IMG/VR virus record: IMGVR_UViG_3300022758_000006
Location: 1-6,494 of that record
Reading direction: 5' to 3' (one strand)
Length of the DNA stretch: 6,494 bases
From: a virus
Shown piece after piece: positions 1 to 6,494 of the stretch; position 1 is the stretch's first letter; every line of letters begins with the position of its first letter. Both the position numbers and the translations under genes were made by a program. Below the pieces are notes generated by a model that saw nothing but the letters and a program-made list of their open reading frames with translations, did no database searches and was not told the DNA's origin.

Positions 1-127
1 AGTTTTTCGGCATAGGCAGAACCAATACCGCCATTCTTACGGGAAGCGAGCATAAACGTAGGATTCATACCTTTGGGAGCGCATTCGCGTTTACCCATAT
101 ATTTCATGACATAATTGATACCACCAT
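1..127. repeat. Terminal direct repeat, copy 1, identical to 6368..6494. It marks a circular 6367-nt genome linearised with a 127-nt overlap.
   Basis: Compared base by base: agtttttcggcataggcagaacc...catgacataattgataccaccat occurs at both window ends. The run of 5 T's at 3..7 matches 6370..6374, and both copies end in ccaccat. Confidence 0.9.
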
Positions 128-767
128 TGATAACAGGAACACAATAAGCAAAACCAATAGACCTAGTAACAGGTGATCCGTCAGGATTGTACTCACCAGT
201 AGGACGACGCCAGCAGCTTTCAATGAGTGTAAGCCGCGAGTATGCGGTTTCAAAGTTATCAGGGAAATTCCATAATATAATATGATAGTGAGGACGTTTA
301 GACCAGTGTCCATACTCAGAAACTGCAATATAGCGAAGATTATGAGAAATACCACGTCTATCAAGTTTGGTACGAAGACGTTTAAAAAAGAGTTGAATCT
401 CTTCCGGAAATACTCCGTTTTTCGGTAAGTGTTCATTGTTATAAGTAAGAGTTATAAAATAGGCTTGTTTATTAGAAGTGTACGACTCACAGAGGGCACG
501 AAAAGACCATTGTTGAGCTTTTTTTTCATTACAAAGAGCACATCTGTTACAAGGAACAATCAAGAACATAGGGAAAGTTTCACCAGTAGAAGGATTCACA
601 ATAGTATATTTATCAATATTGTTTTTATTAACATGATTCTTGTTCACATGGAGAACAGAACCGTGATATACTCCGGATGGCATAGTAAACGTACGATACT
701 TCTGTACCAGCTTAGAGGCATGTGGATGCCAAATTACTTTAGGGTCTTCACAGTAGATATTATTCAT
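1..767 (-). CDS. VP4: Replication initiation protein (Microviridae VP4/Rep, HUH rolling-circle endonuclease), N-terminal about 255 codons. The C-terminal part is the same reading frame continuing across the circular junction into 6367..5779. The left window edge truncates this copy.
   Basis: Translated by hand on the minus strand from ATG at 767..765: MNNIYCEDPKVIWHP...VPCNRCALCNEKKAQQWSFRALCES...YFITLTYNNEHLP...RPHYHIILWNF...INGGINYVMKYMGKRE. There is no stop between 839 and 1 in this frame (stop TAA at 842..840). From established knowledge, the gokushovirus VP4 N-terminus has the pattern C..P...PCG.C.GCR...WA.R...FITLTYDDEHLP. Motif I FITLTY lies at 441..458, motif II HYHIIL at 273..290 and motif III YVMKYMGK at 90..113. 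The ORF track missed this frame because it is incomplete at the window edge. Confidence 0.85.
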   Translation of the reverse strand, partial: MNNIYCEDPKVIWHPHASKLVQKYRTFTMPSGVYHGSVLHVNKNHVNKNNIDKYTIVNPSTGETFPMFLIVPCNRCALCNEKKAQQWSFRALCESYTSNKQAYFITLTYNNEHLPKNGVFPEEIQLFFKRLRTKLDRRGISHNLRYIAVSEYGHWSKRPHYHIILWNFPDNFETAYSRLTLIESCWRRPTGEYNPDGSPVTRSIGFAYCVPVINGGINYVMKYMGKRECAPKGMNPTFMLASRKNGGIGSAYAEK

Positions 768-893
768 AATAAATAGTTTTAGCGGACGGAAGCCGCACTT
801 TGGGCAAATCGTAACTTTTCCGGTGGAAATAATCAAAGATTAGAGGTGTGTCAGTTACTACATACTTATCAAGTTATAGCGGTACGATTTTGG
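768..893 (-). promoter_or_regulatory. Intergenic region upstream of Rep and downstream of the VP2 terminator; presumed Rep promoter region.
   Basis: About 125 nt of non-coding sequence between the terminator hairpin and the Rep ATG. It contains TA...TTTG-like elements (TACGATTTG, TAATCTTTG) but no exact match to the Bacteroidetes -7 consensus, and there is no SD before the ATG. Confidence 0.25.
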
Positions 894-926
894 AATAAAT
901 CGTGAAAAGCCGGAGGACATCCGGCT
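894..926 (-). terminator. Putative rho-independent terminator directly after the VP2 stop.
   Basis: Read on the minus strand after the TAA at 934..932: AGCCGGA-TGTCC-TCCGGCT (plus-strand positions 908..926), a perfect 7-bp GC-rich stem with a 5-nt loop. It is followed by TTTTCACGATTTATT. Confidence 0.5.
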
Positions 927-931
927 AATCA

Positions 932-2080
932 TTAACGAAATCCAATTGGAGACATAGACTTTCCAAGGAAACCACCTTTCTGCAAAGAAGTAGTAGCGCC
1001 AGCAAATTGACCGACAGCAAACGATAAGGAATTAACCCAAGTTGTAGCAACATTAGTAAAACGTTCGGTTGAATCCCAGTCTTTAGCCTGGTCAAAGTTA
1101 AACTTAGCATGCTGATTGGAAATATCAATACCAGTTTGCTTATACAATTCAGTCATAGTTTGTTCACTAGCTAACAATCCTTGTTTTTTCATCATATAAG
1201 TAGACGCATTCAGATTCATTACACGAGCCATTTGCGTAGCCATCATATCTTGCACTTCGGCCGCATTAAGAGCAATACGAGAATTACTCTCTTTCATTTC
1301 CTGATATGTTTTCTTACACAAAAGCTCAAAATCCTTAGAACGCAAATACCTATCAAACTTCATTTGGACAAGATTTTCACTTATTTGTGATTGTTGAGCC
1401 TTCATTGTATTAATACGCTCACGAGCTTCAGACATGGCAACATCAATTTCCTGAAGTTTCTTTGCAGCAACTTCGGCTTCAGTATGATTTAATTGTCCGA
1501 GCTCATGATTTACGTAAATAGTTGAATTGTTCAACTCGATATCACTTTCCGTACGAGCTTTGCGAAGCAAGTAGTCAGCCGTAAGTAAGCTTTCTTCAGT
1601 CTCTGTTTTCTTACTTTCGGAATTTGCTAAACGAGCTTGCGCAGCTTTCAACCCAGCATCAGCAGCGATTTGTGCAGTCTGTCCGTAAGTATTCGTAGGT
1701 ATCACATTGAATCGAGGTGTAGGAGCTTGCGCAGGAGCTTCAGGAGCAGTTGCATTTCCTACGTCACCACGAGAGTACATCAAATCCGGATTCAAACCGG
1801 CTTCTTTCAAACGTAGCATTTGCGCAGCAGGAGAATTATATGAGTTGTTTTTCTCATACATTTGCTCTATCCAAGCTTGTTGCGCCAAACGTTCTTCACG
1901 AGCGAATTTACTTTCACGCTCAAAGGCTTCGGCAGATGCCTTGCGGTTACTTCTGTTACCGAACCAGTTACCAATAGCGGAAATAGCAGCGCCACCAATA
2001 GCGCCAATAGCCGTACCGATTCCAGGAACAACAGAGCCAGCAGCAGCACCAGCGGCAGCACCAGCGGCAGGACTAGGCAT
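932..2080 (-). CDS. VP2: Minor capsid / DNA pilot protein (Microviridae VP2-like), 382 aa.
   Basis: The N-terminus is Gly/Ala-rich (PAAGAAAGAAAGSVVPGIGTAIGAIGG). It is followed by ...NSYNSPAAQMLRLKEAGLNPDLMY..., which resembles the conserved VP2 motif ...MSNTAYQR...KAGLNP.L.Y of microviruses. The middle of the protein is coiled-coil-like. The gene sits directly after the VP3-like gene: TGA of that gene, 2 nt, then ATG. Confidence 0.7.
   Translation of the reverse strand: MPSPAAGAAAGAAAGSVVPGIGTAIGAIGGAAISAIGNWFGNRSNRKASAEAFERESKFAREERLAQQAWIEQMYEKNNSYNSPAAQMLRLKEAGLNPDLMYSRGDVGNATAPEAPAQAPTPRFNVIPTNTYGQTAQIAADAGLKAAQARLANSESKKTETEESLLTADYLLRKARTESDIELNNSTIYVNHELGQLNHTEAEVAAKKLQEIDVAMSEARERINTMKAQQSQISENLVQMKFDRYLRSKDFELLCKKTYQEMKESNSRIALNAAEVQDMMATQMARVMNLNASTYMMKKQGLLASEQTMTELYKQTGIDISNQHAKFNFDQAKDWDSTERFTNVATTWVNSLSFAVGQFAGATTSLQKGGFLGKSMSPIGFR
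2036..2070. repeat. 12-bp tandem repeat gcagcaccagcg (about 2.7 copies) encoding the (AAAG)n N-terminus of VP2.
   Basis: 2043..2054 and 2055..2066 are identical, with partial units on both sides. Confidence 0.7.
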
Positions 2081-2082
2081 AA

Positions 2083-2544
2083 TCAGTTATTTTGAGGATT
2101 AATATACTTATCACCAAATTTCTTCTGACGAAGAACCTGAAGAGCCCTACGCTGGGAAGCTTTTTCCATTTCCCAAGCGGTAGCCATATCCATTTCACGA
2201 CGGAATTGCGGCTCTAAATTCCAAGAAGCGTCACCGTTAACGTCAATAAAATTTACGTTCATAGGAGAAACAGGAATACCACGTTTAGCCATTTCGGCTA
2301 CTTGTTGAGGTGTTAAACCTAGATTAGGTTTAGTTCTTTCAAAATCTTTTTGTACATCAAATTCACATGTTACAGATTTGTAATCCGGTTTTGTATTTCT
2401 AGCCATAATTGTAAAATTTAAAATTTTAATATTTATTTGTGCGTCCGAGCGGGCTTTCCGGCTCAAACATATCTTCGCTACGCTACGATACTCGCCTGCA
2501 ATCCCTGACGCACGCAACAAAGTTGCTATTAATTTGCGTTTCAC
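2083..2544 (-). CDS. VP3: Putative internal scaffolding protein (VP3-like). The maximal ORF is 153 aa. The more likely functional start is the ATG at 2406..2404, which gives 107 aa.
   Basis: The segment ...LTPQQVAEMAKRGIPVSPMNVNFIDVNGD... resembles the [M/I].R..RG[LI]P[LV] region of gokushovirus VP3 scaffolding proteins; this rests on remembered patterns, not a search. Its size and its position adjacent to VP2 fit. The N-terminal 46 codons of the long ORF run through a GC-rich hairpin region (2439..2513) and look non-protein-like. An AT-rich stretch sits just upstream of the 2406 ATG. Confidence 0.45.
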   Translation of the reverse strand: MKRKLIATLLRASGIAGEYRSVAKICLSRKARSDAQINIKILNFTIMARNTKPDYKSVTCEFDVQKDFERTKPNLGLTPQQVAEMAKRGIPVSPMNVNFIDVNGDASWNLEPQFRREMDMATAWEMEKASQRRALQVLRQKKFGDKYINPQNN

Positions 2545-2620
2545 GCAGAGGGAAAATACTTTTCCCTTTTAATCTTACGAAATTGCAAAGATAGGTATGC
2601 GCGCGCGACAAGTCCAATGA
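2439..2620. promoter_or_regulatory. GC-rich structured island inside the long intergenic region downstream of VP1. It holds several hairpins and a (GC)4-5 run.
   Basis: There is an inverted repeat gtgcgtc(2439..2445) / gacgcac(2507..2513). Two hairpins are present: gagcgggc-ttt-ccggctc at 2448..2465 and tgcgt-ttc-acgca at 2534..2546. A perfect 8-bp hairpin agggaaaa-tac-ttttccct at 2552..2570 is followed by tttt. The run atgcgcgcgcgac sits at 2597..2609. Confidence 0.5.
2549..2574 (+). terminator. Terminator-like hairpin plus T-run on the plus (non-coding) strand.
   Basis: AGGGAAAA-TAC-TTTTCCCT is followed by TTTTAAT on the given strand. No plus-strand gene precedes it, so it may block antisense transcription or act as a structural element in the ssDNA. 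Confidence 0.3.
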
Positions 2621-2621
2621 A

Positions 2622-2690
2622 CCTAGTACTAATAATTGATTAAATATTATAACAGAGTTCTAATATTTAACAATTATTACTACTAGAACC
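2622..2690. repeat. Long imperfect AT-rich palindrome of about 65 bp. The perfect 10-bp inner arms ttaaatatta(2640..2649) / taatatttaa(2661..2670) are separated by an 11-nt spacer; the outer arms cctagtactaataattga / caattattactactagaacc carry one mismatch and one 1-nt bulge.
   Basis: Reverse-complementing the right arm by hand gives ggttctagtagtaataattgttaaatatta, against the left arm cctagtactaataattgattaaatatta. Confidence 0.6.
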
Positions 2691-2758
2691 CTTGGAGCAA
2701 GTCGCACACACATGCCTAAAAGATGCAATGTCGGAAGAAAAAAGAAAAAATTATTTTC

Positions 2759-4960
2759 TTAATCTAGTCGCGGTATTGCAACACGGCTGATTGGTAATCG
2801 GGCAATCGCGTTAAACTTCACGTATCCGAAAATTTTATCCGTGTACTCCGTGACACTGAAAACCTGATTAACTGTATCAGAATCAACAAGTAAAAACTCC
2901 TGACCAAGTTGAGGTAATCCGGAGAACACACGAGACATAATGAAATTTTTCATGTTAGTACGGAACAAACCGTGTGCACTATCATACTTAGCAACATATT
3001 CATACCACGGACGTTGATACCCGAATGTTTTATTCAATTGGTCAGTGCTGTCATTTGCAACAATATTCATTGGGCAAATTTCCTTATACGTGACAGGTTG
3101 AAAACCAATACGGTCAAATTCCGGTTGATAGTGGTCAAGTAAACCATTGTATGTAAAATCTTTAGGTAACAATTGCGTATAAATAGGCACAGGAGTCACA
3201 GTTAATAAACCAATAATATAAGATTCCTCATCACAGAATACTTCAATATTATTAGACGTAGAACCATATACTCCGGCAATACCGGTTTTAGAGCCAAGAG
3301 CTTCGGCATACTGACCTTGAGAGCTAGCGCTCTGTTGGTCTACGGTCTGCTCAACTGTACGCATAGACAATTCACGAGAAATACCGCCAATAAATTCAGG
3401 CATAAGGAGTTCATCAAATCGAATATCAATATCCCAACGACCTTGCATGATTTGTTTATATGAAAAACCTTTACGCATGTTAAGTTCAAGGAATTTCTGA
3501 TAAGCATTAACATAACGAAGAGTCTCAATAGTAAAGCCAGAACCTTCAGTAGTAGCAAGGGCAGCGAGTTCCGCATACGAATTAATAGCGGTAACAGGAG
3601 TTTTTTCAGACACAGGATCATAATCAACGCCTACAAGACGCTCACCATCTTCAGAAACTTTATAAGATAATCCATACTTAGAGCCGTCTTCGTCAACAAG
3701 AACAGTTTGTTTTTGAACGGAGTAAGTTCCATCATCTGCACGAGTAACAACATCACCCATAACAAGACCAACGAGAGGAGCATTAGCACCTTGTTGAGGA
3801 TTCGGTACGGCAGTGGTCAAAAAATCACGCTCCCAATTACACTGACGAAGTTCATATAACGTAGTATCAGCACCACCTTTCATATTAGGCAGCCATTTGT
3901 TATAAACAGGACGACCATTAACTACAAAAGGATTGTTACGTACGTCACGATAGTATGCATTATACACAGATTCATAAGCGCGGAAACGATAAGCCAACAA
4001 ATGAGTATTATTCGGACGATTTTCAGTAGCAAACGGATATGTACTATAAACTACGTCATTTTGCAAAATATAATATGTATAAGTTACGTTGAAACTAATA
4101 TTAGCAAAACTAATAGGAGAGGCAACATTAGGAGCAGTAATGGCAACAAGCGGCGTACCTTGAATATTACCAAAGCTAGAGGGGTCAATAGATGAAATAC
4201 TAGCACCAACAACACCATCAGCAGACTTTTTAAACTCAATTGGCAAATCAAAACCATAAGTACTATCATCACCAAGAAAAACAAAATAACCTCTTGCACC
4301 GTCAAAAACTTCAGATTGACCACCATTAAGAGTAATATCTACGCCAACTTGAGAAACAGAAGCCGGAATAGCAGTAGAAGAACCAGCAGTATTAAAAATA
4401 ATAGTTTGAGTTCCATCAGTATTCAAAGAAGTAGTACATTGTTGAGAAGGGATACCTCCATCAGCACGAATACTATTCATAACATCAGATAAAACGGTAT
4501 CCGTAATAGCACGAGATTTGGCAGCACAAGGTTTATCAACAAGAGTAACAGTAGAAGAGATACGAGTTCCAAATGTAGGCAAACCTAAATAATCACCTAG
4601 TGTACCAGTGCGACACATTCGATTAAAACGAGACGAATCAGGCAAAATATATGGCTCTACCAAGTCATCACGGAAATTAGAAATGAAGTCGGAATAATCC
4701 TCCCACATGGAACGGAGAGTTACCTTGAAAAAATTAAGGCGAGCAAACATACGAGTTTGGACAGGAAATACCATAGGCATCAGCTCAAGACCGAACTCGG
4801 GATTAATACGAAGAGAGCCTTTTGCAGGAACAAGCTCACAAAATACCGGAGTAATACGACCAAAATTAGTGGTCAAATTATTCACATGAGACCAATCAAA
4901 CGAATTTACATCAATACGATTATTCGCATCAAATGTAGCGTCAAAAATGTTTTGTGCCAT
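2759..4960 (-). CDS. VP1: Major capsid protein VP1 (Microviridae F/VP1 family), 733 aa.
   Basis: The N-terminus ...NSFDWSHVNNLTTNFGRITPVFCELVPAKGSLRIN... matches the gokushovirus pattern S.FDRS....TTF..G.LIP....EVLPGDTF. DYLGLPT matches exactly, and ...YESVYNAYYRD... is like ...WNQYYRD.... The 733-aa length with a long Ser/Thr-rich central insertion is typical of alpavirus-like VP1. The start overlaps the stop of the upstream small ORF (TAATG). Confidence 0.92.
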   Translation of the reverse strand: MAQNIFDATFDANNRIDVNSFDWSHVNNLTTNFGRITPVFCELVPAKGSLRINPEFGLELMPMVFPVQTRMFARLNFFKVTLRSMWEDYSDFISNFRDDLVEPYILPDSSRFNRMCRTGTLGDYLGLPTFGTRISSTVTLVDKPCAAKSRAITDTVLSDVMNSIRADGGIPSQQCTTSLNTDGTQTIIFNTAGSSTAIPASVSQVGVDITLNGGQSEVFDGARGYFVFLGDDSTYGFDLPIEFKKSADGVVGASISSIDPSSFGNIQGTPLVAITAPNVASPISFANISFNVTYTYYILQNDVVYSTYPFATENRPNNTHLLAYRFRAYESVYNAYYRDVRNNPFVVNGRPVYNKWLPNMKGGADTTLYELRQCNWERDFLTTAVPNPQQGANAPLVGLVMGDVVTRADDGTYSVQKQTVLVDEDGSKYGLSYKVSEDGERLVGVDYDPVSEKTPVTAINSYAELAALATTEGSGFTIETLRYVNAYQKFLELNMRKGFSYKQIMQGRWDIDIRFDELLMPEFIGGISRELSMRTVEQTVDQQSASSQGQYAEALGSKTGIAGVYGSTSNNIEVFCDEESYIIGLLTVTPVPIYTQLLPKDFTYNGLLDHYQPEFDRIGFQPVTYKEICPMNIVANDSTDQLNKTFGYQRPWYEYVAKYDSAHGLFRTNMKNFIMSRVFSGLPQLGQEFLLVDSDTVNQVFSVTEYTDKIFGYVKFNAIARLPISRVAIPRLD

Positions 4961-5157
4961 TAAAAATGAGGCTTAATAGTTACTGAATCTACCTTTTGTT
5001 GGGTAGTTTGTTGAGAATCCTGTTTTGAATTTTGATTTTTCCAAAAAACAGACATAGACGCAGTACAGGACTGTACTGTAAGGGCAGTAATCACACCAAT
5101 AATAAATGTAGAAATCAGCTGTACAAGCTTAATCCACTGACTAGGAGTAATTTTCAT
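4960..5157 (-). CDS. Small membrane protein (65 aa) with an N-terminal signal-peptide/TM segment ending in ...LTVQSC (lipobox-like), followed by a Q/S/T-rich hydrophilic tail. Candidate lysis, spanin-like or superinfection-exclusion lipoprotein.
   Basis: The protein is MKITPSQWIKLVQLISTFIIGVITALTVQSCTASMSVFWKNQNSKQDSQQTTQQKVDSVTIKPHF. Its start overlaps the preceding ORF (ATGA) and its stop overlaps the VP1 start (TAATG), which indicates translational coupling. Confidence 0.5.
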   Translation of the reverse strand: MKITPSQWIKLVQLISTFIIGVITALTVQSCTASMSVFWKNQNSKQDSQQTTQQKVDSVTIKPHF

Positions 5158-5318
5158 AATTTTTCAAGAATTAACAAAACATCATAACCTAAATTAGCAT
5201 CCTGCAATTGCTTACGAAACCGTTCGGCAGTTGAAGGACGGTTGAAAATACCAATATTTATAAGAAACTCCTCATGAAGTGTTTCTCTTTTAATAAACTT
5301 TAAAACACCTTTATACAT
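5154..5318 (-). CDS. Small hypothetical protein (54 aa): MYKGVLKFIKRETLHEEFLINIGIFNRPSTAERFRKQLQDANLGYDVLLILEKL. The track ORF extends to 5471 (105 aa), but that N-terminal half overlaps the 73-aa ORF out of frame and looks like a hydrophobic artefact.
   Basis: The ATG at 5318..5316 lies 1 nt after the TAA of the upstream 73-aa ORF (TAAtATG). The C-terminal half has protein-like composition. The stop overlaps the next ATG (ATGA). Confidence 0.4.
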   Translation of the reverse strand: MYKGVLKFIKRETLHEEFLINIGIFNRPSTAERFRKQLQDANLGYDVLLILEKL

Positions 5319-5319
5319 A

Positions 5320-5541
5320 TTAATAGATTTCTTTATAAAAACGAACATGAAGAACGTTTTGGGTATTAAACAAACGACGAGCGTAAGCACGAGCATCATT
5401 AATAGACATTTGAGATTTCTTACGATACTCATAAGGTTTAAGACGTCCGGTTTCAGGATCACGCCAACCAATTTCGAAAATAAAAGTATATTTACTTATC
5501 ATTGCACAACTTGAAAGTTTTAAAACAATCAAGGCAAACAC
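5320..5541 (-). CDS. Small hypothetical basic protein, 73 aa. An alternative start at M14 (5502) gives 60 aa: MISKYTFIFEIGWRDPETGRLKPYEYRKKSQMSINDARAYARRLFNTQNVLHVRFYKEIY.
   Basis: The residue composition is diverse and protein-like, with charged residues. The gene is packed tightly against its flanking ORFs. Confidence 0.45.
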   Translation of the reverse strand: MFALIVLKLSSCAMISKYTFIFEIGWRDPETGRLKPYEYRKKSQMSINDARAYARRLFNTQNVLHVRFYKEIY

Positions 5542-5686
5542 CTAATATCTTACACTTAGTAGCCCTAGAAAAACACTTAGAAACAAGGATAGCGTCTTTC
5601 AAACTAATAGCTTTAACAAAAGTAAAATCATTAAGACCATTCTTATTAACATAAAAAATAATGTAAAAATCTGCAGTTTTATCCAT
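5492..5686 (-). CDS. Small hypothetical Cys-rich protein (64 aa): ...CFSRATKCKILGVCLDCFKTFKLC. Possibly a zinc-ribbon-like protein.
   Basis: It is the first ORF after the Rep stop (92-nt gap). Five Cys fall in the last 26 residues, including a C-x2-C pair. It would overlap the next ORF by 11 to 50 nt depending on which start is used. Confidence 0.3.
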   Translation of the reverse strand: MDKTADFYIIFYVNKNGLNDFTFVKAISLKDAILVSKCFSRATKCKILGVCLDCFKTFKLCNDK

Positions 5687-5778
5687 AACACATAAATTAA
5701 ATTAGTATTCCTTTTTCTTACACTACAAAGATAAGAATTCTTTTGTTAATAAAGTGTTAATCAAGCGTTAAATCTAGT

Positions 5779-6494
5779 TTAAATTTTCTCTTTTCTATAA
5801 TGTTTATTCATCTTCTCACGAACATCATAAGAAGCTTTTTTAAGATTAAGCTCCTCTCTCATAGACATTCGAGCATTGATAGCAGATTGTTGTAAAGAAT
5901 TCATTTGTAAGGATTTTTCATGCTTCAGGACTTGAGAAGAATCAAAGAATACAAGAGCGGTAGACAGGCAGTCAAGCGCATAACTAAATGCTTTATAATA
6001 CAAATCCTCATAAACAGTCTGTGAACAGAGTTGAGGAAGATAATACTTTATAAATGTATCATTTATAACAGTTTTGTAAGGATTATAATAAGGAGTTTTA
6101 CCAGTCATACGAACAAGGCGAAGATATTCTTCAGGATAAGTAAACTTAAAAGGAAGTTTGTATTGCTTATGGAGATAACGAGCAATTTCAAACCAGCGTA
6201 CAGTATCCTTAAAATACTTAATAAAATTAGAGTCATAACACATTGAAGTAGACGGCATAAACTTCATGCGGTAATAACGAGGTAACATTGTAGTCAATGA
6301 TTGTCCAGTATAAATATTAATAACAGACATATCACAAGTATCCGGCTGCTGTTCATAAAAAGCGCGAAGTTTTTCGGCATAGGCAGAACCAATACCGCCA
6401 TTCTTACGGGAAGCGAGCATAAACGTAGGATTCATACCTTTGGGAGCGCATTCGCGTTTACCCATATATTTCATGACATAATTGATACCACCAT
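5779..6494 (-). CDS. VP4: Replication initiation protein VP4/Rep, C-terminal part (the second copy of the junction region is included). The full gene is join(767..1, 6367..5779), about 451 aa.
   Basis: The 231-aa track ORF MKYMGKRE... is the in-frame continuation; its M at 6474 corresponds to position 107, inside motif III. Stop TAA at 5781..5779. Total 1356 nt, which is 451 codons plus stop. Confidence 0.85.
   Translation of the reverse strand, partial: GGINYVMKYMGKRECAPKGMNPTFMLASRKNGGIGSAYAEKLRAFYEQQPDTCDMSVINIYTGQSLTTMLPRYYRMKFMPSTSMCYDSNFIKYFKDTVRWFEIARYLHKQYKLPFKFTYPEEYLRLVRMTGKTPYYNPYKTVINDTFIKYYLPQLCSQTVYEDLYYKAFSYALDCLSTALVFFDSSQVLKHEKSLQMNSLQQSAINARMSMREELNLKKASYDVREKMNKHYRKEKI
6368..6494. 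repeat. Terminal direct repeat, copy 2 (same sequence as 1..127); assembly or concatemer overlap of the circular genome.
   Basis: Exact identity to 1..127 with offset 6367. Confidence 0.9.

Follow-up and report, generated by a model that had tools for sequence, protein, structure and literature searches.

An apparently complete, circular alpavirus-like microvirus genome with a conserved hairpin and 39-nt core downstream of the capsid gene

The stretch of DNA analyzed here (the window) comprises 6,494 nucleotides (nt), positions 1 to 6,494 of the IMG/VR record IMGVR_UViG_3300022758_000006. It very probably represents one complete, circularly permuted microvirus genome of 6,367 nt (Microviridae, order Petitvirales) of alpavirus-like type, recovered as a circular assembly path and recorded in the orientation complementary to the coding strand. 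Circularity, strand, a set of eight genes, the family membership of VP1, Rep and VP2, purifying selection on eight open reading frames (ORFs) and the placement of the virus in a clade are what the analysis itself shows. The genome also carries an unusually conserved intergenic element directly after the capsid gene VP1, consisting of an imperfect hairpin of ~205 nt and an adjacent 39-nt core.

The first 127 nt of the window (1..127) are exactly repeated at its end (6368..6494). This is the longest exact terminal match, and dropping one copy leaves a circular unit of 6,367 nt. Both 127 and 55 are standard k values of de Bruijn assemblers, and the redundancy is therefore read as the overlap left on a circular path (k = 127); the contigs of relatives end in exact terminal repeats of 127, 127, 55, 55, 98 and 24 nt. 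The repeat lies within the Rep coding sequence. On the circularized unit, a single minus-strand ORF spans the junction, running from window position 836 to 1 and then from 6367 to 5779. Starting from the ATG at 767, it encodes a Rep protein (VP4) of 451 amino acids (aa), with its 5′ part at 1..767 and its 3′ part, including the stop codon at 5781-5779, at 5779..6367. This protein has full-length matches in relatives that run uninterrupted through the junction (99% over 451 aa in contig L007, 97% over 451 aa in GenBank record ON840028 and 97% in L004 and L005), and the identity of the window to L007, an independent contig, is even around the whole circle including the junction, at 0.90-1.00 per 250 nt. 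The terminal repeat is therefore a circular overlap, as the original prediction had proposed, and not a host-flanking duplication. Rep measures 451 aa from its ATG; the 474-aa length counted from a TTG is only the mechanical maximum.

Genomes of Microviridae are circular, measure 4.4-6.5 kb and carry their genes on one strand. The 6,367-nt unit conforms to this, with eight genes that are all on the minus strand of the window; every ORF with family support or purifying selection lies there. In coding order these are Rep, B64, C60, D54, E65, VP1, p107 and VP2, that is, four small ORFs between Rep and VP1 and a 107-aa ORF between VP1 and VP2. The ratio of nonsynonymous to synonymous polymorphism (pN/pS) was calculated against dozens of distinct relatives (47 for C60 and 51 for D54), except that B64 had only ten full-length relatives. 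Values were 0.10 for Rep, 0.11 for VP2, 0.25 for p107 and D54, 0.30 for C60, E65 and VP1, and 0.36 for B64, compared with 1.0-2.4 in a control with three wrong frames. All eight ORFs are therefore real genes, and they are under purifying selection. Their starts share the absence of a Shine-Dalgarno (SD) sequence: the 25 nt preceding each of six scanned starts contain no GGAG/GAGG/AGGA-type motif, and none was seen when the p107 and C60 starts were read directly. The G+C content is 37.7%. In all these respects (complementary strand, gene set and order, lack of SD motifs, AT-richness) the original prediction holds.

Other searches of the window gave little. An Rfam scan at E ≤ 1 returned only a chance match to a small nucleolar RNA at 22 bits, no tRNA was detected, and scans for sigma-70 promoters and intrinsic terminators did no better than on shuffled sequence, as expected for a Bacteroidota host. 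None of the five small proteins has a Pfam or PHROG match.

Rep matches PF23343 (3e-18) and phrog_942 (1.3e-49) and contains the motifs FITLTY (motif I), HYHIIL (HUH) and YVMKY (motif III). It is thus a superfamily I HUH rolling-circle initiator with two tyrosines in motif III, as is typical of Microviridae. The C-terminal ~145 aa have no family match, and a comparison of Rep with solved structures produced none.

VP1, the major capsid protein (733 aa; 2759..4960, minus strand), matches PF02305 (Phage_F; 4.9e-43, score 148 against a cut-off of 25 bits) and phrog_514 (4e-83), and is a capsid protein of the F/VP1 type. Together with the Rep profiles, these matches to Microviridae families agree with the initial identification of a complete microvirus. 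Matches to solved structures were confined to gokushovirus-type capsids (8DES, 1.5e-19; 9CGM, 1.8e-17), and phiX174 F was not matched. Residues ~135-330 (3971..4558, minus strand) form a hypervariable insertion outside the best Pfam stretch, where identity falls to 0.33-0.67 against relatives that reach 0.8-0.95 elsewhere. The insertion is presumed to form surface protrusion loops; a surface protrusion in the capsid has been described for the suborder, and hypervariability of VP1 is as expected (PMC9239249). The same residues are mosaic between relatives. In ON840028, the nearest whole-genome relative in GenBank, VP1 is only 70% identical, below the 78% found in more distant genomes, which suggests recombination in the surface loops.

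VP2 (382 aa; 932..2080, minus strand) matches phrog_8689 (9.9e-20) and phrog_31272 (4e-13), both annotated as 'pilot protein for DNA ejection', and lies 3′ of the capsid gene as pilot genes of Microviridae do. Its N-terminus is Gly/Ala-rich and glycine-zipper-like, with a weak match to a Gly-zipper Pfam family. Directly 3′ of the VP2 stop, a terminator-like hairpin (GCCGGA-TGTCC-TCCGGC followed by TTTT; 905..925, minus strand) lies in the VP2-Rep intergenic region (768-931), whose conservation is 0.91-0.94.

The 107-aa protein p107 (2083..2406, minus strand) is encoded between VP1 and VP2, and its family reaches Bacteroidales proviruses. The earlier description of this ORF as VP3-like holds for its position only. 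Neither Pfam nor PHROG contains a match, the best hit among PDB profiles is not significant (E 0.051), and hhalign gave a probability of 0.15% against annotated microviral scaffolding proteins, a set without Chp2 and phiMH2K VP3. These comparisons found no homology to VP3, and p107 may be regarded as a positional equivalent of the scaffolding gene. An AlphaFold (AF2) model has a predicted local distance difference test (pLDDT) score of 55.5 and is unreliable. In many database entries p107 is called as a 150-aa protein from an upstream start. In the window, the corresponding longer reading (region 2406-2544, minus strand) has as its start a GTG (window 2544) that is itself part of the conserved core. 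The ATG start giving 107 aa is favored because the stretch between core and ATG is indel-prone, poorly conserved and missing in some relatives.

The four small ORFs differ in their conservation. B64 (64 aa; 5492..5686, minus strand) is a variable accessory gene; nowhere in the genome is conservation lower than in this region (0.39-0.54), which is mosaic between relatives. C60 (60 aa; 5320..5502, minus strand), which is also called in relatives, and D54 (54 aa; 5154..5318, minus strand) are conserved small proteins. E65 (65 aa; 4960..5157, minus strand) is lipoprotein-like: in the alignment, a basic N-terminus is followed by a hydrophobic stretch of ~20 residues and then an invariant cysteine (C31) after Ser or Ala, a pattern that looks like a lipoprotein signal peptide. 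E65 is 61-69% identical in genomes that have no detectably similar VP1, and its family has 36 representatives among 1.84 billion proteins. As a guess, it is a candidate lysis or exclusion protein. Upstream of this block, the intergenic region between Rep and the small ORFs (5687..5778, minus strand) holds the second exact copy of TATCTTTG (5733-5726), a candidate Bacteroides -7 box that is likely a promoter for the small-ORF/VP1 block. A similar string, ATCTTTGTAGTGT, occurs 3′ of the left attachment site in a Bacteroides provirus (L016, described below), and that attachment site lies at the position equivalent to this intergenic region.

Conservation along the genome peaks outside the genes. 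Across nine complete relatives, window 2760-2511 has a conservation of 0.94-0.98, against ~0.8-0.9 for genes. It contains an imperfect hairpin of ~205 nt (2552..2758, minus strand) that begins 1 nt after the VP1 stop. The 352-nt region folds as DNA at -72.3 kcal/mol (z = -8.2 against shuffles). In an alignment of 12 diverse copies, the consensus hairpin has 79 pairs, 37 of which show compensatory double changes; 96.3% of the alignment cells are paired, compared with 41-50% in slid controls, and none of 500 shuffles reaches the observed values. The structure is specific to one strand owing to conserved G-T pairs, and in all 64 distinct copies the hairpin has greater stability on the coding strand than on the complementary one, by a mean of 7.3 kcal/mol. 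In this the element agrees with single-strand promoters and complementary-strand origins, whose long imperfect hairpin is maintained by selection on the packaged strand only; here the + strand is taken as the packaged one by analogy with the family.

The 3′ arm of the hairpin carries ATTG-N21-TATCTTTG (2586..2618, minus strand), a promoter motif of the Bacteroides -33/-7 type. In the form ATTG-N20/21-TAnnTTTG it is kept in 63 of the 64 distinct copies, and the coding strand has no second site of this form, with 0.41 expected. Within the hairpin, the -7 box coincides with a conserved internal loop. An exact match to the full consensus TTTG-N17-23-TAnnTTTG is not present in the window, where the relaxed -33 form matches once. 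The arrangement was also considered as an invertible-promoter switch of the kind known in Bacteroides and rejected, since the element is one whole palindrome instead of short flanking repeats and its pairing is strand-asymmetric.

Next to the hairpin lies the 39-nt core, CTCTGCGTGAAACGCAAATTAATAGCAACTTTGTTGCGT (2512..2550, minus strand), in which two mini-hairpins, GCGT-GAA-ACGC and GCAAC-TTT-GTTGC, are placed around AAATTAATA. One of them shows a compensatory change from GCAAC/GTTGC to GCAAT/ATTGC (C-G to T-A). The core retains 85-95% identity in microviruses with only ~20% identity in VP1 (L045-L048, L050, L052, L057 and L062), and it is also present in L016. It was found at 20 loci in IMG/VR viral contigs, all of 4.2-8.2 kb, and those examined encode microvirus proteins; the 69 loci in metagenome contigs are nearly all demonstrably microviral. 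At the few core loci that have no VP1 nearby, the pilot gene is still present or the contig is a short fragment. The core may serve as Rep nick site or as a conserved leader. It shares short AT-rich words with the phiX174 origin (CAACTTG^ATATTAATAAC), in a different order, which is a lead only. As an attachment site it was rejected, being internal in proviruses.

Between the core and p107 lies a variable structured spacer of ~75 nt (2439..2513, minus strand), bounded by a 7-nt inverted repeat (GTGCGTC...GACGCAC). Many relatives have another variant in its place, and it is missing in two (L032 and L033), where the core ends only ~27 nt from the ATG. Similarity to part of the spacer was seen in an 18.9-kb phage contig (MT836100) and in a chicken microvirus on the opposite strand.

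The complete hairpin and core occur in the group of the window, in the Bacteroides provirus L016 and in several more distant genomes. In three genomes of a different clade (L045, L046 and L048), the full element lies 5′ of Rep and not 3′ of VP1. In a further set of genomes with ~20% VP1 identity (L047-like), the core alone lies 5′ of the pilot gene. Rfam contains no family that matches the hairpin or core, and no paper was found that describes the element.

Precedents exist for replication signals of this kind. The minus origin of M13 is a folded single strand on which RNA polymerase makes a primer, and in phiX174 and G4 the priming signals for the complementary strand lie in the intergenic region just after the capsid gene. 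A single-strand promoter hairpin that likewise gives rise to a primer RNA is exemplified by Frpo of the F plasmid (PMC9849209). The M13/f1 minus origin, Frpo and ssoA-type origins are functional analogues for the hairpin only. Like the hairpin described here, they are long imperfect hairpins on the transferred or packaged strand and orientation-specific, exchangeable cassettes (for Frpo, PMC9849209); they rebuild promoter boxes of the host, as the hairpin here may do. They differ in lacking any sequence similarity to it, and the candidate boxes here are of the Bacteroides sigma-ABfr type.

The VP1-p107 intergenic region could be a compact replication module, comparable to the f1 intergenic region and combining a single-strand promoter with a Rep nick site, that would have been exchanged between clades with ~20% VP1 identity, as would, separately, E65. 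This proposal is possible but rather doubtful. Taking the life cycle from the family (phiX174 and gokushoviruses), the coding-sense strand would be packaged and the single-stranded DNA would enter the cell with VP2 as pilot, to be turned into duplex by host enzymes. The two-tyrosine HUH Rep would then nick the plus-strand origin and drive rolling-circle synthesis, while sixty copies of VP1 would assemble with a small internal protein, for which p107 is a positional candidate, and the strand would be packaged. On the incoming single strand, the hairpin may fold to create a duplex promoter of the Bacteroides sigma-ABfr type. Using the 5′ arm of the hairpin as template, host RNA polymerase could produce an antisense RNA serving as primer for complementary-strand synthesis. 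Once the DNA is duplex, these boxes would drive p107-VP2 as a promoter of the usual kind. Rep would nick in the adjacent core, giving a clustering of origins like that of f1.

The main rival explanation is that hairpin and core have a purely transcriptional or post-transcriptional role, as a promoter with a structured leader and/or a terminator or 3′ stabilizer, with no part in DNA replication. This is a real possibility, although held with well below even confidence. The element is always intergenic, in gene orientation and directly 5′ of a gene (p107 here, Rep in L045, L046 and L048), and in L047-like genomes the core ends ~27 nt before the pilot ATG; such a constant position fits a transcriptional role equally well. 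The element contains ATTG-N20/21-TAnnTTTG, and G-U pairs suit RNA as well as DNA. A simple promoter, however, would have no use for a complementary copy of itself 100 nt upstream, maintained through 37 compensatory pairs. In some genomes the hairpin lies elsewhere than 3′ of VP1, so that it is not simply a terminator of the capsid gene, and no U-tract follows it. In addition, 85-95% nucleotide identity of the core across clades with ~20% VP1 identity exceeds that of usual leaders.

Three considerations weigh against the replication module. Priming or nicking at the hairpin and core is a proposal drawn from sequence. The covariation and strand asymmetry fit an mRNA structure as well as virion DNA. 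Finally, the -33 box, ATTG, is one base off the consensus TTTG, and that consensus is from Bacteroides, itself the presumed host.

The genome has close relatives in public data. The best whole-genome match is Logan contig SRR10479832_3528 (L007), from another run, with 95.2% identity over 100%; its proteins are 95-99% identical (84% for B64), substitutions are scattered, and the two are borderline members of the same species. In phage collections and GenBank, the nearest record is ON840028 (Rattus norvegicus microvirus RnF02/con/MCP2), which is also 6,367 nt long and has the same gene order. It shows 89.5% identity over 87% of the query and ~82% global nucleotide identity, with Rep at 97%, VP2 at 91%, p107 at 93% and VP1 at only 70%, due to the hypervariable insertion; the B64 region also differs. 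ON840028 carries the same hairpin and core, and the record annotates the capsid gene only. The layout VP1 - hypothetical 107 aa - pilot - Rep - small ORFs is likewise found in bajarodmic virus 65 (PQ006744) and Tortoise microvirus 1 (MK765551), with VP1 at 78%, Rep at 68% and global identities of 74% and 64%; VP2 of the Tortoise virus is only 41% identical. In a large protein collection, the best 120 matches are all VP1 clusters (at 90% identity) that are at least 84% identical to the window, so that at least 120 such clusters exist; the majority lie on 6.2-6.6 kb contigs. Assemblies labeled human gut metagenome are the source of several relatives. Judging from these identities, the virus is a species-level variant in a heavily sampled, largely unannotated lineage, and the initial suspicion of a poorly described lineage must be set aside.

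The gene order, which the original prediction regarded as unusual, is not. Its VP4-VP1-VP2 core is the normal order for microviruses, and the full layout recurs in deposited relatives. VP4-VP1-VP2 is kept in all Microviridae except Pichovirinae, and alpavirus genomes have an unassigned ORF 3′ of VP1 as a possible VP3 equivalent (Roux et al., PMC3394797). Members of Suborder III almost exclusively show VP1-VP2-VP4, with a variable position of VP3 (Kirchberger et al., PMC9239249), and in Bacteroidetes proviruses an ORF sits between VP1 and VP2 in exactly this way (Krupovic and Forterre, PMC3091885). Reference gokushoviruses run VP1-VP2-VP3-...-Rep, from which the window differs only in the place of the small ORF and in the four small genes from Rep to VP1.

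A different doubt concerns the exact 6,367-nt sequence, which could be a chimeric or consensus assembly and not a single molecule. Public contigs of 8-11 kb from relatives (L004, L006, L039/L056, L074, L077 and L104) join two different strains head-to-tail, and VP1 and the B64 region are mosaic between relatives. Chimerism of the window is nonetheless very improbable: the even identity to L007 shows no block switch, every ORF is intact, and ON840028 has the same length. The head-to-tail contigs, two of which measure ~10.9 kb and contain no host flanks, are assembly chimeras that could pass for larger genomes or proviruses.

The affiliation of the virus was examined with a distance-based neighbor-joining tree of 39 VP1 sequences, calculated without bootstrap. 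The window falls inside a clade that holds all the Bacteroides and Bacteroidales proviruses found in the genome scan described below, as expected from the original suggestion that it is closer to Bacteroidetes-associated alpavirus-like viruses than to gokushoviruses. Its VP1 is 51-52% identical to that of three Bacteroides proviruses (L015-L017), 24-25% to Chp2, SpV4 and phiMH2K, 19-22% to the group of the Bacteroides isolate phiHBP1 and 22% to phiX174 F. That the window is a large member of Gokushovirinae sensu stricto is highly improbable. The solved structures matched by VP1 are all gokushovirus-type capsids, and one paper places Bajarodmic/Tortoise-type genomes near the 'Gokushovirinae' branch of a whole-genome tree (PMC13064476). 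Against this, Chp2, SpV4 and phiMH2K form a separate VP1 clade outside of which the window lies; no homologue of VP3 (PF09675-type) or VP5 was found in Pfam, PHROG or hhalign comparisons, the small ORFs having no Pfam or PHROG match; and the genome measures 6.4 kb instead of the 4.4-4.6 kb of gokushovirus references.

The window resembles the proviruses BMV1-7, which correspond to the proposed Alpavirinae and the putative Family 5 of Kirchberger et al. In both, the genome measures ~6.3 kb, only VP1, VP2 and VP4 are recognizable, a conserved ORF separates VP1 from VP2, and Rep is of the two-Tyr type (PMC3091885, PMC3394797, PMC9239249), the features by which Alpavirinae are described. The two differ in the length of the VP1-VP2 ORF (~150 codons in BMVs, 107 in the window) and in the position of Rep, which is immediately 5′ of VP1 in BMVs, whereas four small ORFs intervene here. 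NCBI taxonomy has no 'Alpavirinae' entry, and no family assignment of the relatives was found in the supplements of PMC9239249. Another comparison is offered by phiHBP1 (PV598014), reported as the first cultured Bacteroidota microvirus, which has a genome of ~6.3 kb, the order VP1 - small ORF - pilot - Rep, a Bacteroides host and an M15 peptidase (PMC13064476). Its VP1, however, is only ~21% identical and belongs to another clade, and neither hairpin nor core was found in it.

The host is most likely a gut Bacteroidales. A pattern scan covering one genome per prokaryotic species found 17 loci with VP1 relatives, 15 of them in Bacteroidota assemblies. Bacteroidetes lack SD sequences and use TTTG/TAnnTTTG promoters (PMC7366714). 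A Bacteroidota host fits the window because SD motifs are absent and TAnnTTTG is enriched (17 observed against 8.2 expected), and the clustering of VP1 with Bacteroidales proviruses, together with the missing SD motifs, makes a Bacteroides host likely.

The provirus L016 illustrates how such viruses may reside in these hosts. It occupies 6,468 bp (7092-13574) of a 3.7-Mb contig of Bacteroides sp. f07 (NZ_BAABXI010000001.1) and is flanked by a 15-bp direct repeat, ATAATGATTATTCCC, with a dyad core (ATAAT-G-ATTAT). Its neighbors are a tetratricopeptide repeat (TPR) gene adjoining gyrA and a universal-stress-protein gene. The provirus has the same order as the window (small ORFs-VP1-105 aa-VP2-Rep), carries the hairpin and core and encodes no integrase; none was found in the window either, where a search with the dif consensus also produced nothing convincing. 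Microviruses of the L047-like type (VP1 of ~580-590 aa, phiHBP1 clade) occur on contigs of 15-67 kb (L075, L106, L110, L120, L126, L129 and L135), which suggests that this clade also integrates into host chromosomes. On two contigs of 23-28 kb (L091, 9690-10811; L112, 614-1761), a pilot gene follows the core, and neither VP1 nor Rep is detectable in the vicinity; these loci may be what is left of decayed L047-like proviruses. Although relatives thus integrate, it is hardly credible that the window itself is an integrated provirus whose 127-nt repeat is a flanking target or attachment-site duplication, as the repeat lies inside Rep, joining the ends restores a Rep colinear with that of relatives, the window contains no non-viral sequence, 127 is an assembler k value with overlaps of 127 and 55 nt recurring in relatives, and the attachment site of the provirus lies between Rep and the small ORFs, with no good copy in the window.

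Some points temper the reading of the window as one complete alpavirus-like genome from a phage of gut Bacteroidales. Virions, with single-stranded DNA in a tailless T=1 capsid, would be expected from membership in the family. Contigs from metagenomes may merge co-occurring strains into a consensus, and concatemeric strain chimeras exist among the relatives. The presumed host follows from proviral relatives at ~50% VP1 identity and from translation and promoter signals, and in the placement in an alpavirus-like group the defining BMV1-7 were compared by published description only. The best match of the L016 attachment repeat in the window has three mismatches and lies on the other strand, so that, with no good copy of the repeat, a lytic and a temperate lifestyle are both possible.

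With this genome, a very abundant and already sampled, but unclassified and mostly unannotated group of gut microviruses gains one more species-level member. Of practical use are a clean annotation of eight genes, evidence of selection for each small ORF and a well-supported assignment to a Bacteroidales host. While the genome itself adds little, it is the hairpin and core that deserve further study. Hardly any origin or promoter has been characterized in gokushovirus- and alpavirus-type microviruses, and the two elements provide precise, testable candidates. Their sharing across clades shows that cis elements and a small lipoprotein gene move between microvirus lineages with a common host. 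If the proposed role in replication were true, the element would constitute the first origin region defined for microviruses other than phiX174 and the first single-strand promoter proposed for Bacteroidota.

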